NCBI GenBank assembly: GCA_039808485.1
Contig: JBDHTD010000001.1
Location: 64,116 to 128,115 of the forward strand
Length of the DNA stretch: 64,000 nucleotides
Direction of reading: 5' to 3'
Source of the DNA: Aquamicrobium sp.
Lineage (GTDB): Bacteria; Pseudomonadota; Alphaproteobacteria; Rhizobiales; Rhizobiaceae
Each line of letters opens with the position of its first letter. Positions within the stretch are counted from its first letter, which is position 1. The notes beneath the pieces were generated by a model. It ran no database searches. It was not told the DNA's origin and saw only the letters and a list, made by a program, of their open reading frames with translations. A program made the position numbers and the translations under genes. Shown in pieces: positions 26,818-51,994 of this stretch.

Positions 26818-28727
26818 GCCGTGGCCGCCGCGGCGCGGCGGCCCAGCGCGGCGAACACGGCGCGGACGATGCCGGCGCGGTCGAGGCCGGCGGCGGCATA
26901 CATCCCTTCCTGCTTGCCGTGGTCGGTGAACGCGTCGGGCAGCACCAGCGGGCGCACCTTCAAGCCGCCTTCCAGCAGCCCTTCATGGGCGAGGAAATGC
27001 AGCACGTGGGCAGCGAAGCCGCCGATCGAACCTTCCTCGACCGTCACCAGAACTTCATGGTCGCGGGCGAGCCGGCGCACGAGGTCGGCGTCGAGCGGCT
27101 TGGCGAAGCGGGCGTCGGCCACCGTGGTCGAAAGGCCGGCGGCGTCGAGTTCCTCCGCCGCTGCCAGGCAGTCGGCAAGGCGGGTGCCGAGCGACAGCAG
27201 CGCCACCTTGGTGCCTTCCCTGACGATGCGGCCCCTGCCGATGGCGAGCGGCTGGCCGCGCTCCGGCATCTCGACGCCGACGCCGTTGCCGCGCGGGTAG
27301 CGGAAGGCGATCGGGCCGTCGTCATAGTCGGCGGCGGTGCGCACCATGTGGCGCAGCTCCGCCTCGTCGGCGGCCGCCATGACGACGAAATCCGGCACGG
27401 AGGCGAGATAGGCGACGTCGAACGCGCCGCAATGGGTGGCCCCGTCGGCCCCGACATAGCCGGCGCGGTCGATGGGGAAGCGGACGGGGAGCTTCTGGAT
27501 CGCCACGTCGTGGACGACCTGGTCGTAAGCGCGTTGCAGGAATGTCGAATAGATCGCCGCGAACGGCTTCATGCCTTCGGCCGCCAGCCCGGCCGCGAAG
27601 GTGACGGCATGCTGCTCGGCGATGCCGACGTCGAAGACGCGGGCGGGGAACGCCTCGCCGAACAGGTCGAGGCCGGTGCCGGATGGCATGGCGGCGGTGA
27701 CGGCGACGACGCGCTCGTCTTCCCGCGCCTCGCGGGCCAGGCTTTCGGCGAAGACGCGGGTGTAGCTCGGCGCGTTGGCCGGGGCCTTGGCCTGCGCGCC
27801 GCTGACGACGTCGAAGCGGTTGACGCCATGATACTTGTCGGCGGCGGCCTCGGCGGGCGCGTAGCCCTTGCCCTTCTGGGTCACGACATGGATCAGCACC
27901 GGGCCGTCGCCATTGTCGCGGACGTTGCGCAGCAGCGGCACCAGATGCGCGAGGCTGTGGCCGTCGATCGGGCCGATGTGGAAGAAGCCCAGCTCCTCGA
28001 ACAGCGTGCCGCCGGTGACGTAGCCGCGCGCATGCTCGACGGCGCGGGTGACGGCGCGGTCGACCCGGCGGCCGAGATAGGAGGTCAGCTTCTTGCCGAG
28101 GTCGCGGATTTCCTGATAGGCGCGGCCGGTGCCGAGACGGGCGAGATAGTGGCTCAAGGCCCCGGTCGGCGGCGCGATCGACATGTCGTTGTCGTTCAGG
28201 ATGACGATCAGGCGCGCGTCGAGCGCGCCGGCATTGTTCAGCGCCTCGAAGGCCATGCCGGCCGACATCGCGCCGTCGCCGATCACGGCGACGACGTTGT
28301 TCCTGCCGCCCTTGAGGTCGCGGGCCACCGCCATGCCGAGCCCGGCCGAGATCGAGGTCGAGGAATGGCCGGCGCCGAAGGCGTCGTATTCGCTCTCGCC
28401 GCGCTTGGTGAAGCCGGAAAGCCCGCCCTCCTGCCTGAGCGTGCGGATGCGGTCGCGGCGGCCGGTCAGGATCTTGTGCGGATAGGCCTGGTGGCCGACA
28501 TCCCAGATCAGCCGGTCCGCGGGCGTGTCGAAGACGTAATGCAGCGCCACCGTCAGCTCGACCACGCCGAGGCCGGCGCCGAGATGGCCGCCGGTCTGCG
28601 AGACGGCGTCGATCATCTCCGCGCGCAGCTCGGCGGCAAGCTGCGGCAGCTCGCTTTCGGCAAGGCCGCGCAGGTCGGCCGGGATGCGCACCTTGTCGAG
28701 GAGCGGCGTGTGCGGACGTGGGTTCAA
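26814..28727 (-). CDS. dxs: 1-deoxy-D-xylulose-5-phosphate synthase
   Basis: [55 protein letters not shown]. Confidence 0.97.
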
Positions 28728-48221: not shown

Positions 48222-50342
48222 TCAGCCGGCGATCTTCGAGAAGTCGGCCATCTGCCCGGTCGCGCCGCGAATGCGGGCAAGCAGCGCCAGGCGGTTGGCG
48301 CGCACGAAACCGTCCTCGTCATTGACCAGAACCGCCTCGAAGAAGGCGTCGACCGGCCGGCGAAGCGCGGCCAGCGCCTGCATGGCGGCGGAGAAATCCT
48401 GGCCGGCGATGGCGTCGCCCGCCTCGCGCTCGGCCTGGGCGACGGCCTCGTGGAGCGCGCCCTCCTCGTCCTGGCGGAACAGGATCGGATCGACGCTTTC
48501 GGCGACGGCCGTGCCCTTCTTCTCTTCCGCCGCGAGGATGTTGGCGGCGCGCCTGGTGCCGGCGAGCAGGTTCTGCCCGTCTTCCGAATCGAGGAAGATG
48601 CCGAGAGCCGCGACGCGCGAGACGACGATGAGCAGGTCGTCCGCGTCGGGCGAGATCACCGCGTCGATCAGGTCGTGGCGGGCGCCCTTGTCGCGCAGAT
48701 AGACCTTCAGCCGGTCGTGGAAGAAGGAGAGCAGGTCGCGGTCGCCGCCGGTCACCTCCAGCAGATTGAGGCGGATGCCGTTCTCGACCACGATGCGGAT
48801 GACGCCGAGCGCGGCGCGGCGCAGCGCATAGGGGTCCTTCGAGCCGGTCGGCTTCTCGTCGATGGCCCAGAAGCCCGTCAGCGTGTCGAGCTTGTCGGCG
48901 AGCGCGACCGCGATCGAGACCGGATCGGACGGCACGGTGTCGGACGGGCCCTGCGGGCGATAATGCTCCTCGATCGCGGCGGCGATCGCCGCGTCCTCGC
49001 CCTGGAGAGCCGCGTATTTGCGGCCCATCGCGCCCTGGAGCTCGGGAAACTCGCCGACGACCTCGGTTTGCAGATCGGCCTTGGCGAGCACGGCGGCGCG
49101 CCGGGCCATGGCAGGGTCGGCCCCGACCAGCGGCGCGAGCACGGCCGCCAGATCGCGGATGCGCGCGACGCGCGCGCCTTGCGTGCCGAGCCTGGCGTGG
49201 AAGGTGACGTTGAGCAGGTCGAGCCGCGCCATGCGCTGGTCGAGCGGCTTGTTCAGATCGAGCGCGAACTTTTCCGCCGAGGCGGCGAGCGAGGCCAGGT
49301 CCGGCAGGTCGGCCTGGTCGGTGTTCCAGAAATGCACGGCGTCGGAAAGCCGGGCCCGCACCACCTTGCCGTTGCCGCGGGCGATCTCGGCGCCGCCGTC
49401 GCTGGCCTCGATGTTGGAGACCGGCACGAAACGGTTGGAGAGCTTCTCCGCCTCGCCGCGCGGGCGGGTGACGAAGCATTTCTGGTTGGCGCGGATGGTC
49501 AGGCGGATGACTTCCGGAGGGATGCCGAGGAAGGCCTGCTCGAACTCGCCCATCAGCACCACCGGCCACTCGACCAGCCCGGACACTTCCTCGAGCAGCC
49601 CCTCGTCCTCGACCAGATCGAGGCCGGCGGCGAAGGCGAGGTTCCTGGCGTCGTCGAGGATGATGCGCTTGCGCCGTTCGGCGTCGAGCACCACCTTGGC
49701 ACTTTCCAGCTTCGCCACGTAATCGTCGAAGCGCTTGACGGCAATGGCCTGCGGCGCATGGAAGCGGTGGCCATAGGTGACGTTGCCGGCGCGGATGCCG
49801 TCGACCTCGAAATCGACCACTTCGGGGTCCGACGATTCCGGGCCGAAGGTGCAGAGGATGGATTGCAGCGGCCGCACCCAGCGCAGGCTGCCGGGCCTGG
49901 CCGAGGCCGCGCCCCAGCGCATCGACTTCGGCCACGGGAAGCCGCGGATGATGCCCGGCATCAGGCCGGCGATGATCTCTTCCGCCGCGCGGCCGGGGCG
50001 CGAGATGCGCGCGACGTAGAAATCGCCCTTCTTCGGGTCGGTGTGGACATGAGCCTGCGCGACCGATTCGAGCCCGGCCTTGCGCAGGAAGCCCTGGATC
50101 GCCGGCTCGGGCGCGGCCGTCGACGGCCCCTTGATCTCCTCGGCGACATCCTTCGAGCGGGCGGTGATGCCGCGGATGTCGAGCGCGAGCCGGCGCGGCG
50201 TCCAGTATTCGCACGCCGCCTCGTAGGTCAGCCCGGCCTCGACCAGCCCGTCGGCGACCAGCTTCTTCAGGTCGCCCGCGGCTTTCCGCTGCATGCGCGC
50301 GGGGATTTCCTCGGAACGAAGTTCGAGCAGAAGATCAGGCAT
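48222..50342 (-). CDS. glyS: Glycine-tRNA ligase beta subunit
   Basis: [59 protein letters not shown] 7 nt upstream. Confidence 0.97.
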
Positions 50343-50460
50343 CGGTGGGCTCCGCCCGCATGCTGTTTCTTGCGTTGCGCGTCCTCGCGCCGAAGGCGCT
50401 GCGGGCGCGCGGCGATGCGGGAATTTCCTCGGAGCGAAGTTCGAGCAGAAGGTCGGGCAT
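50298..50460 (-). repeat. Direct duplication of the first 45 nt of glyS (copies at 50416-50460 and 50298-50342)
   Basis: 40 of 45 nt identical, with all five mismatches synonymous at third positions. 73-nt spacer. Confidence 0.95.
50335..50460 (-). other. 41-aa mini-ORF beginning with the GlyS N-terminal 15 residues
   Basis: [41 protein letters not shown]. Its ATG overlaps the isochorismatase TGA (TGATG) and its TGA lies 8 nt into glyS (ATGCCTGA). Whether it is translated is unproven. Confidence 0.55.
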
Positions 50461-51053
50461 CAGGACACCAGTTCGGCGGTCGTGCAGACGATGGCGAAGC
50501 GGTCGGCGAGCGCGGCAAGCGCGGCCTCGTGCAGGGAGGCTGCCGGAACGACGCCGCTTCCGCCGGGCGCGGGCAGGTCGCGCGTGGCGGTGGCGTCGGA
50601 GACGACCACCGCGCCGAAGCCCTGCTCGTTGGCTGCGCGGGTGGTGGAGGAGACGCACATATGCGTCATGAAGCCGGCGACGACGACGCGCTTGCGTCCC
50701 GTCGCATCCAGCGCCTCCTTCAGCGTCGTGCCGGCGAAGGAATTGGGCAGGCCCTTGTCGATCACCGTCTCGCCGGCCAGCGCCGCCGCCTGCGGCGCGA
50801 GCGCGTAGCCCGGCGTGTCGGGGCCGAACAGCCCGCCGGACTGGCCCTTGTGGCGGACATGGATCACCGGCGCGCCGGCCGCGCGCGCGGCGGCGAGCAG
50901 CGCGGCGATGTTGTCGAGCGCGGCTTCGACGCCGTGAAGCGGCAGCCGGCCATCGACATATTCGCGCTGGGCGTCGACCACGACCACGGCGGCCTGGCCG
51001 AGCTTCGGCGGGGTCAGGTCCGCGCCGGCGAGCTGAAGAAGGGTTTTTACCAT
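50460..51053 (-). CDS. Isochorismatase-family cysteine hydrolase
   Basis: Asp-Lys-Cys triad motifs VVDAQREY, VIDKGLPNSF and AGFMTHMCVSST. Start ATG 51053 overlaps the glyQ stop. Confidence 0.9.
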   Translation of the reverse strand: MVKTLLQLAGADLTPPKLGQAAVVVVDAQREYVDGRLPLHGVEAALDNIAALLAAARAAGAPVIHVRHKGQSGGLFGPDTPGYALAPQAAALAGETVIDKGLPNSFAGTTLKEALDATGRKRVVVAGFMTHMCVSSTTRAANEQGFGAVVVSDATATRDLPAPGGSGVVPAASLHEAALAALADRFAIVCTTAELVS

Positions 51054-51994
51054 CACGCCGCCTCCGGCTTCCAGCCGAGGCCGCCGGCCTCGGTCTCGAG
51101 GAACGCCTCGCCACACGCCTTGGCGAGGTTGCGCACGCGCAATATGTAGCTCTGCCGCTCGGTGACGGAGATGACGCCGCGCGCGTCGAGCAGGTTGAAG
51201 GCATGCGACGCCTTGATGCACTGGTCGTAAGCCGGCAGCACCATGCGGTGCGGCTGGCCTTCCGGCCGCGTCGCGCCGGCGGCGAGCAGGGCGCGGCACT
51301 CCTGCTCGGCGTCCTCGAAGTGGCGGAACAGGATGGCGGTGTCGGCGAACTCGAAATTGAAGCGGGAATATTCCTGCTCGGCCTGAAGGAAGACCTCGCC
51401 ATAGGTGACTTTTTCCGCGCCCTCGCGGCCGTTGAAGTTCAGGTCGTAGACGTTGTCGACGCCCTGGACATACATCGCCAGCCGCTCCAGCCCGTAGGTC
51501 AGCTCGCCGGCGACGGGCGCGCATTCGATGCCGCAGACCTGCTGGAAATAGGTGAACTGCGACACCTCCATGCCGTCGCACCAGCATTCCCAGCCCAGCC
51601 CCCAGGCGCCGAGCGTCGGGCTTTCCCAGTCGTCCTCGACGAAGCGGATGTCGTGCAGCTTCGTGTCGACGCCGATGGCGTCGAGCGAGCCGAGATAGAG
51701 CGACTGGAGGTCCGGCGGGTTCGGCTTCAGGATCACCTGGTACTGGTAGTAGTGCTGGAGCCGGTTGGGGTTCTCGCCGTAGCGGCCGTCCTTGGGCCGG
51801 CGCGAGGGCTGGACATAGGCCGCGTTCCACGGCCGCGGCCCCAGCGCGCGCAGCGTCGTCGCCGGATGGAAGGTGCCGGCGCCCACCTCCATGTCGTAGG
51901 GCTGGAGAATGACGCAGCCGCGCTCGGCCCAATAGTCGTGCAGGGTCAGGATCAGGCCCTGGAACGACCGGGTCGGGTGCATGTGGGCGGGCAT
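51053..51994 (-). CDS. glyQ: Glycine-tRNA ligase alpha subunit
   Basis: [44 protein letters not shown]. Start uncertain (51982, 51994 or 52018). Confidence 0.96.

Follow-up and report, generated by a model that had tools for sequence, protein, structure and literature searches.

An upstream reading frame that repeats the first 15 codons of glyS and a covarying hairpin form a candidate conserved leader of glyS in Hyphomicrobiales

Several aminoacyl-tRNA synthetase genes are preceded by structured leaders, such as the T-box of Bacillus glyQS, the operator of Escherichia coli thrS and the leader-peptide attenuator of pheST, and some cis-regulatory RNAs are arranged in tandem, as in tandem glycine riboswitch aptamers and tandem T-boxes. 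To our knowledge, little is known about the regulation of the genes for the heterotetrameric glycyl-tRNA synthetase (GlyRS) in Alphaproteobacteria, and how its subunits are balanced when genes are inserted between glyQ (alpha subunit) and glyS (beta subunit) is an open question. Here we describe a module directly upstream of glyS in a 64,000-nt stretch of an Aquamicrobium sp. genome (GenBank assembly GCA_039808485.1, contig JBDHTD010000001.1, positions 64,116 to 128,115; hereafter the window), in which a second copy of glyS codons 1–15 (copy A) opens an upstream open reading frame (uORF) and is followed by a conserved spacer, S, and then by glyS itself. The closest described counterparts are the short, operon-internal uORFs of another alphaproteobacterium, Sinorhizobium meliloti, whose stop overlaps the start of the main ORF as ATGA and which act by translational coupling in reporter fusions (PMC13285730). 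The expected effect is the same in both cases, namely termination-reinitiation or unfolding of the downstream initiation region. Unlike those uORFs, the one described here, for which coupling is proposed, copies the first 15 codons of the main ORF, contains a covarying hairpin and occurs in one to four units. Similar to the synthetase leaders, the module is a cis-acting RNA and/or leader peptide directly before a synthetase gene and plausibly balances its output, but it has no Rfam match, including to the T-box and the glycine riboswitch. We would class it as a variant of the coupled uORF combined with a structured leader, and one for which Rfam has no entry.

The first-pass annotation of the window had reported that glyS codons 1–15 are duplicated 118 nt upstream with five silent third-position differences, that the upstream copy continues as a 41-aa ORF ending within the glyS start, and that the 73-nt spacer contains GGAG-N7-ATG and a hairpin, GCGCC-TTC-GGCGC, all of which the sequence confirms (Table 1; coordinates are those of the whole window, and all genes discussed lie on the minus strand). 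With ATGs at 50460 and 50342, both 45-mers encode the same 15-residue peptide and differ by CCC/CCT, GAC/GAT, CGC/CGT, ATT/ATC and GCA/GCG. The repeat has sharp edges, formed by the ATG and by codon 15/16, and identity falls abruptly beyond both. The same annotation had named an assembly artefact as one way in which the repeat could be dismissed. The repeat is not an artefact, because contigs of three independent, unrelated metagenome runs carry the region without differences and the structure recurs in more than 50 independent assemblies. The same isochorismatase-family protein, the product of the gene upstream of the uORF, was found on an independent Logan contig with the same structure downstream, and metatranscriptome contigs from related strains span S and copy A, one of them with an extra S unit upstream. 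Two properties go beyond what had been noticed in the window: the spacer holds a structured RNA, and the unit forms arrays of one to four copies.

Recurrence was assessed in two sets of comparison loci and contigs, labelled by L-numbers (L001–L080 and so on). A scan of genomes with the GlyS of the window, one genome per species, gave 80 other Hyphomicrobiales loci, and a scan of metagenomes for the 3' box of S (GCATGCG) followed by a glyS start gave 58 contigs. The duplicate recurs in Hyphomicrobiales: the structure of copy A, S and glyS is present in 6 of the 80 other species genomes (7 of 81 counting the source of the window), and S was found in about 50 of the 58 contigs, all of which have the upstream copy A unless cut by the contig end. 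Five of the six genomes, from Mesorhizobium spp. (L004 and L030), an Aquibium sp. (L040) and two metagenome-assembled genomes (L072 and L037, one of which is low in G+C), have copy A, an S of about 74 nt and glyS intact, while the sixth, L041, retains S with a degraded copy A. Degradation of copy A is confined to 2 of about 52 S-bearing loci, L041 and L137. Two to four units in perfect register were observed in eleven contigs, with a maximum of A-S-A-S-A-S-A-S-glyS in L131. There is always one S element fewer than there are glyS-start copies, S never lies 5' of the first copy, and the first unit normally lies directly against the stop of the gene before it.

As judged by GlyS similarity, the carriers cover several Hyphomicrobiales families in a patchy but wide distribution, comprising relatives of Mesorhizobium, Aquibium, Pseudaminobacter, Aquamicrobium, Hoeflea, Rhizobium/Agrobacterium, Brucella/Ochrobactrum and Aureimonas, as well as Bradyrhizobium-like lineages. 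Public protein sets contain 71 clusters of 37–43-aa homologues of the uORF product, among them entries from cultured Pseudaminobacter, Mesorhizobium loti, Hoeflea, Aquamicrobium, Rhizobium and Agrobacterium strains. These ORFs also present an annotation problem: public records name them 'hypothetical protein' or mistake them for the 'glycyl-tRNA synthetase beta subunit'.

Comparison of 58 distinct pairs of copy A and glyS copy gave 212 synonymous and 48 non-synonymous differences, corresponding to a ratio of non-synonymous to synonymous divergence (pN/pS) of 0.08 at a synonymous divergence (dS) of about 0.45, and 210 of the 260 differences fall on third positions. For codons 9–15, which lie outside both search patterns, pN/pS is 0.073 and 119 of 143 differences are third-position. 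The third-position bias that had been read from five differences in the window thus holds in aggregate, and the values of 0.07–0.08 support the earlier proposals that both copies evolved under selection for the same peptide and that they did not arise by simple slippage duplication. By reasoning rather than computation, a balance between mutation and homogenisation among the copies should lower pN/pS no more than about two-fold, suggesting that constraint on the opening 15 codons of the uORF acts at the codon level. The synonymous-only differences would then reflect purifying selection on these 15 codons and, in the case of CCC/CCU at codon 2, selection for the uORF stop. The module appears to be a clear case of a uORF that copies the N-terminal codons of its main ORF under purifying selection.

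The frames and stops of the units follow strict rules. Among 70 units analysed for start, frame and stop, all start with ATG, or with GTG in four loci, and 67 end at the next start, either in UGAUG/UAAUG or in AUGCCUGA, the latter being the overlap of the uORF stop with the glyS start in the window. The exceptions are two units of L130, whose stop falls two bases short of the next AUG, together with the degraded unit of L137. Intact units are 112, 113, 118, 119, 121, 122, 125, 130 or 166 nt long, none a multiple of three, and form ORFs of 37–42 codons, with the exception of L103 (57 codons); in this 166-nt unit an internal duplication of the S core lengthens the uORF, whose stop still falls on AUGCCUGA. 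Pro2 is encoded by CCT in 23 of 24 copies that follow a 3n+1 unit, compared to 10 of 36 after a 3n+2 unit (Fisher p 1e-7, uncorrected for phylogeny), and a CCT in the former position creates the UGA stop of the preceding uORF. One of the five differences in the window, CCC in the upstream copy and CCT in glyS, is explained in the same way. The unit thus has the start, the open frame and the stop on the main start that characterise a translationally coupled uORF, in which translation of the main ORF would depend on that of the uORF. Of the explanations offered by the first-pass annotation, a translated leader that tunes GlyS synthesis is favoured by these observations, namely the stops on the next start, the avoidance of 3n lengths and the covariation of CCU with unit length.

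Two other ways of crossing the spacer were considered. A programmed frameshift into glyS was rejected because 3n+1 and 3n+2 units share one hairpin and would need opposite shifts. Translational bypassing is known from T4 gene 60 and from mitochondrial 'byps', in which the gap is about 50 nt. Similar to these cases, matched coding sequence in the module flanks a non-coding gap that starts with a hairpin, carries an SD-like (Shine-Dalgarno-like) GAGG and is never 3n long. However, each glyS-start copy has its own SD and AUG, so that bypassing is unneeded, and the gap is 112–166 nt; moreover, the boundary codons of the two copies often differ (GCA/GCG in the window), codon 16 is retained in only about half of the copies, and there is no stop after the putative take-off position.

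Each unit combines a glyS start (AUG plus 15–16 codons) and a hairpin of some 34 nt with an A-rich linker, a GCAUGCG(GG) box and a Shine-Dalgarno sequence. Across about 55 loci S is 71–80 nt long, and about 121 nt in L103. Because the reading frame through S varies between lineages, its conservation does not lie in the peptide: one and the same set of conserved bases falls in two or three frames, depending on lineage, GCAUGCGGG being read as SMR, ACG or HAE and GCGAGGACG as ART or RED. A covariation alignment of 54 distinct units, with 500 shuffles and slid-partner controls, revealed instead two helices, P1 and P2. P1 takes the form G-Y-N-C-G with C-G-N-R-C, realised as GCGCG/CGCGC, GUUCG/CGAAC, GUCCG/CGGAC or GCACG/CGUGC, and P2 that of GCGCC, a three-base loop and GGCGC, with the variants GCGGC/GCCGC, GUGCC/GGCAC, GCAGC/GCUGU and GCGCG/CGCGC. 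Changes on both sides were found in 8 of 10 pairs (4 of 5 in each helix); the P1 pair 19-50, for instance, is GC in 32 units, UA in 8, AU in 6, GU in 5 and CG in 3. The proportion of paired cells is 96.3% in P1 and 97.3% in P2, and 94.8% for a three-helix structure that includes a pseudoknot candidate. None of the 500 shuffles reached the covariation score, and slid partners dropped to 17–56% paired as against 95%. The same P1/P2 hairpin was obtained independently by RNAalifold, and its G-U pairs fit the sense (mRNA) strand. The internal loop, CCCGCA opposite GAGGA, is nearly invariant, and the P2 loop is variable, so that, in contrast to the synthetase leaders, no anticodon-like loop is evident.

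Other properties of S point in the same direction. Lineages of low G+C retain the helices by compensatory changes, S following the local G+C. Identity between genomes is 0.75 in the S core versus 0.58 at synonymous third positions of the adjoining glyS, and S divergence correlates with GlyS divergence (r = 0.43–0.51), a pattern that fits vertical descent under constraint. SD-like purines occupy the same position in related units, and the GCAUGCGGG box is present in 7 of 7 instances that were found without using the box as a search key. With compensatory changes beyond the controls, as expected of a structured cis-regulatory RNA, S is a structured nucleic-acid element that most likely acts as RNA.

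Database and motif searches gave no described counterpart of the unit. Rfam had no relevant match at E <= 10 in the window segment 50150–50650 and none at gathering score in six array loci, so the module adds a covariation-supported hairpin to those absent from that collection. Searches with nhmmer and a covariance model located S only before glyS within the 64-kb window and about 1.1 Mb of related loci; over the same sequence it does not behave as a dispersed repeat of the repetitive extragenic palindrome (REP) or miniature inverted-repeat transposable element (MITE) kind. A weak covariance-model match (20.1 bits, E 0.14) lies at 26953–27027 (+) of the window, far from glyS. Neither a promoter nor a terminator was found within the unit on the sense (minus) strand. 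Attenuation is not indicated either, since there is no sense-strand terminator with a U-run (the sequence after the hairpin is A-rich) and no conserved glycine codon, the frames being different between lineages. Glycine-codon attenuation, tRNA-Gly mimicry and a T-box-like UGGA were each considered and set aside, as the corresponding features are not conserved in the alignments. A full-text literature search returned no description of a glyS-start leader structure.

Table 1. Features of the glyQ–glyS region in window coordinates, with the basis of each assignment
Feature	Position	Strand	Basis or remark
glyQ (glycyl-tRNA synthetase alpha subunit)	51053..51994 (start approximate)	-	Pfam PF02091, E 7e-143; ORF list, sequence
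Isochorismatase-family gene, between glyQ and glyS	50460..51053	-	Pfam PF00857, E 1.4e-41; sequence
uORF, 41 codons	50335..50460	-	Stop TGA 50337-50335 within glyS codons 2-3 (ATGCCTGA)
Copy A (duplicate of glyS codons 1-15)	50416..50460	-	Five synonymous differences from the glyS copy
Spacer S, 73 nt, conserved nucleic-acid element	50343..50415	-	Seen only between glyS-start copies; alignments
Two-helix hairpin	50377..50410	-	Covariation (54 sequences) and RNAalifold
Helix P1	GCGCG 50410-50406 with CGCGC 50381-50377	-	
Helix P2 (50399-50387)	GCGCC 50399-50395, loop UUC, GGCGC 50391-50387	-	
Internal loop	CCCGCA 50405-50400 opposite GAGGA 50386-50382	-	
GCAUGCGGG box	50355..50363	-	Complementary to glyS codons 15-18 and to the CCCGCA loop of the hairpin
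Shine-Dalgarno GGAG	50350..50353	-	7 nt 5' of the glyS ATG; sequence
glyS (glycyl-tRNA synthetase beta subunit, 706 aa)	48222..50342	-	Pfam PF02092, E 2.6e-173, and PF05746
Copy A' (glyS copy)	50342-50298	-	
CGCAUGC (glyS codons 16-18)	50297-50291	-	

Taken together, we consider it probable, at about 0.6, that the module is a conserved cis-acting leader in which a structured RNA and one or more coupled uORFs relay or gate ribosomes onto glyS, its regulatory function being what we infer. In the window, glyQ, the isochorismatase-family gene, the uORF and glyS form four frames chained by stop/start overlaps: the ATG of the isochorismatase-family gene overlaps the TGA of glyQ (51055–51053) as TGATG, the ATG of copy A overlaps the TGA of the isochorismatase-family gene (50462–50460) again as TGATG, and the uORF meets glyS in ATGCCTGA (50335–50342). 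Ribosomes leaving the upstream gene would re-initiate at the AUG of copy A, translate the uORF or uORFs through the hairpin, terminate on the glyS AUG and re-initiate there, melting the hairpin and the GCAUGCG box in passing. This box might otherwise pair with glyS codons 16–18 and close the glyS initiation region, or it could alternatively pair with the CCCGCA loop of the hairpin; either pairing would make glyS initiation depend on uORF translation. The former helix, which is predicted by RNAalifold, can form with 7–12 contiguous base pairs in 43 of 44 arrays and would bracket the SD together with the AUG and 15 codons. In this manner the module may set or buffer the amount of the beta subunit relative to the alpha subunit. 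It is a widely conserved and experimentally tractable candidate for GlyRS subunit balance, present in cultured strains related to Mesorhizobium, Aquibium, Pseudaminobacter, Hoeflea, Rhizobium and Agrobacterium and offering a natural copy-number series of 0–4 units between close relatives. Isolates that carry it include Mesorhizobium sp. Root157 and Root552, Aquibium sp. ELW1220, Pseudaminobacter salicylatoxidans, Hoeflea marina and an M. loti strain in which the uORF has the locus tag C8D77_102411. In its varying copy number the module differs from tandem riboswitches and tandem T-boxes, with which it shares the iteration of a structured leader unit before one gene; the glyS units, in addition, include coding sequence and a start site.

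A number of observations weigh against this interpretation. The single-sequence fold of S is no stabler than shuffles (z = -0.75), and the case for structure in S is for this reason carried by covariation. The gating helix with glyS codons 16–18 shows no covariation, pairing at the variable position being observed 29 times versus 28 expected, and the CCCGCA:UGCGGG pseudoknot, in which the bases are conserved and the outer pairs often broken, shows no both-side change. Ascertainment of the metagenome contigs depended on GCATGCG followed by an intact glyS start, and counts across loci are not phylogenetically independent. Many close relatives live without the module, which is therefore dispensable: it is present in L127 and missing from Tianweitania populi (L007), whose GlyS is 95% identical over the 173 residues available, and it is present in L081 and L098 and missing from L005 (GlyS 96% and 84% identical), although L005 and L098 have their upstream junction in common. 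Simple coupling also leaves unexplained why the uORF starts with GlyS's own 15 residues. A more specific proposal, which we regard as an improbable extension, is a 'self-mimicking' leader. In it, a uORF selected to encode the N-terminus of the regulated protein, together with the CCCGCA/GAGGA hairpin, which is also seen in a few phage and gene transfer agent (GTA)-like operons, would respond to how GlyRS is produced or assembled, or to the capacity for translation, and would adjust synthesis of the beta subunit, with the copy number (1–4) serving as an evolvable gain control.

The conserved leader has to be weighed against other explanations of the same arrangement. The module could be a tolerated tandem repeat without a function of its own, selection acting only against variants that harm glyS through in-frame fusion, an untranslated gap or lost coupling. 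Copy numbers that vary from one to four with copies evolving in concert, together with a patchy distribution and clean absence in close relatives, agree with this, and damage limitation alone could account for the frame and stop rules. It does not, however, predict compensatory base-pair changes in two helices, an S that evolves more slowly than synonymous sites across families and adapts to low G+C, or a pN/pS of about 0.07 on copy A. Direct repeats of 45 nt that lie 73 nt apart should also be deleted readily, so that their long persistence would argue for retention by selection, and overall this explanation appears unlikely. Somewhat less likely still is a functional micropeptide encoded by the uORF, which, in trans or while still a nascent chain, would mimic the GlyS N-terminus to report on or modulate GlyRS assembly, the hairpin then being secondary. 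Such a role would suit the restriction of codon-periodic constraint to the 15 GlyS-like codons and a uORF length held at 37–43 codons, but the remainder of the peptide is not conserved as protein and is read in different frames in different lineages, and a chain of 40 residues barely leaves the ribosomal exit tunnel. In the heterotetramer, residues 1–63 of the beta subunit form domain B1, and it is domain B3 that completes the active site of the alpha subunit (PMC10464925). That description gives no support for an alpha-binding N-terminal peptide, and the idea of the GlyS N-terminus as an alpha-subunit-binding peptide was rejected.

Two proposals of the first-pass annotation invoked foreign DNA, and neither is borne out. 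In one, an integrative element or cassette inserted at codon 15/16 of glyS, bringing a replacement 5' end, and left the repeat as its scar. Elements of this kind are known, with phage 21 and e14 in the 3' end of icd and SXT/R391 in the 5' end of prfC, and the layout of the module does resemble the direct repeats that they leave, as gene-end copies that differ mainly at synonymous sites. Unlike in those cases, the glyS repeats are separated by 73 nt that are conserved and structured, occur in up to four iterations in register and diverge along with the host gene, and the integrity of the uORF is maintained. No recombinase gene was found between or beside the copies in about 55 loci, nor was cargo between them, and neither the composition nor the phylogeny expected of an attachment-site duplication foreign to the host lineage was seen, S tracking both GlyS and the local G+C. 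The single locus with cargo, L022, carries 2.8 kb (LemA- and DUF2207-like ORFs) between a glyS-start copy and glyS, which could be taken in favour of a scar, as could S-like hairpins in a few phage-like contigs. No recombinase is evident in L022, however, and its junction is different, the glyS-start copy being fused to a 3' fragment of glyQ without S. We regard a scar as highly improbable. The other proposal, capture of a foreign glyS allele junction as the origin, finds no support, as one spacer and one architecture recur across several families. A related and only marginally less improbable possibility is that copy A is under no selection and that recombination imports diverged functional glyS alleles, in tracts that end between the copies. 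Imported variation would already have been filtered by selection, and mosaic patterns among copies do occur (L098 and L081), but S, the arrays and the stop rules would be left unexplained and low pN/pS was found in nearly all 58 pairs from many lineages. By a rough estimate that was not computed, imports ending within 118 nt should also add less than new mutations do unless recombination exceeds mutation about 30-fold.

With respect to the evolution of the conserved leader, the copy number of one to four would change by unequal recombination between the 45-nt copies, and recombination between copy A and the glyS copy would delete the module cleanly, which may account for its patchy presence among close relatives. 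Indeed, copies within a genome share unusual codons (AGA AGC in L072; CGC AGC in L088 and L124), and mosaic arrays were observed: in L098 a 5' part is common to the first and last copies and missing from the internal ones, and in L081 the glyS copy uses codons of the AGA and AGC families at the positions of CAC (Arg to His) and TCC in copy A. The shared codons and mosaic arrays indicate that unequal recombination or gene conversion operates among the copies. 

A decayed glyQ 3' end, or glyS from codon 16 onward, either of which a tandem duplication over the glyQ–glyS junction could have supplied, was considered as the source of S and rejected, as the nhmmer matches are position-consistent and far from significant; likewise, local alignments with flanking glyQ and glyS are no better than those with random windows or shuffles (p = 0.18–0.98). 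In L085 (980–1040) and L122 (20 nt before the first copy), the last glyQ codons are identical to the 3' end of S and the glyQ stop falls on the next start, the C-termini concerned being …GMRAEPTDA* and …DMRAETR*; L085 has neither an upstream copy nor the hairpin. This identity could equally be explained by secondary fusion. In L022 (3143–3300), a 48-nt glyS-start copy is joined directly to a diverged copy of the glyQ 3' end, again without S, as would be expected from a duplication spanning the glyQ–glyS boundary, and such duplications thus appear to occur.

Hairpins resembling that of S were also observed in phage-like contigs, namely in L145 (2745–2778, +) and L149 (8419–8499, -) as well as L141, L148 and L153. 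The L145 example is a complete P1/CCCGCA/P2/GAGGA/P1' hairpin with compensated P1, scoring 34.5 bits with the S model, and lies 140 nt upstream of an ORF resembling a replication initiator, adjoining a divergent helix-turn-helix ORF. In L149 the hairpin lies in a gap of about 330 nt that separates an HK97-type major capsid ORF from an ORF for a head-tail connector. Rfam has no match at these S-like hairpins, and the CCCGCA/GAGGA hairpin may be a more general motif. A second viral group (L140, L147, L155, L160, L154, L157 and L151) shares CCGCAG-CGGC-UAU-GCCG-CGAGGA-GGGAAC, preceded by GUUAAG and a hairpin segment in six of the seven contigs (all except L151) and present in two copies each in L140 and L154. 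In this group Rfam gave only a sub-threshold FuFi-1 match, located elsewhere in L157, and the shared motif is possibly an undescribed phage RNA or repeat.

The glyQ–glyS junction, upstream of glyS in L001–L080, is a hotspot of gene insertion. Isochorismatase-family genes are inserted there in the window, L022 and L093/L123 and, as judged by C-terminal sequence, in L005, L007 and L098, and L022 (2010–5911) also has LemA plus DUF2207-like genes. Many Rhizobium- and Ensifer-type loci have ORFs sharing a Gly-rich 'GGGGGW*' C-terminus upstream of glyS. A REP-like palindrome (CCGACCCTCCCCATCAAGGGGAGGGTG) stands directly before glyS in unrelated genomes (L003, L006, L017, L021, L024, L034, L051, L076, L077 and L127). 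Where glyS is separated from glyQ, a promoter-like motif, GGTGACA-N15-GCTTGCTAAGTC, is conserved about 40–90 nt upstream of glyS, as in L011, L014, L016, L019, L020, L023, L025, L027, L029, L049 and others. Most array-bearing loci abut an upstream ORF instead of this motif.

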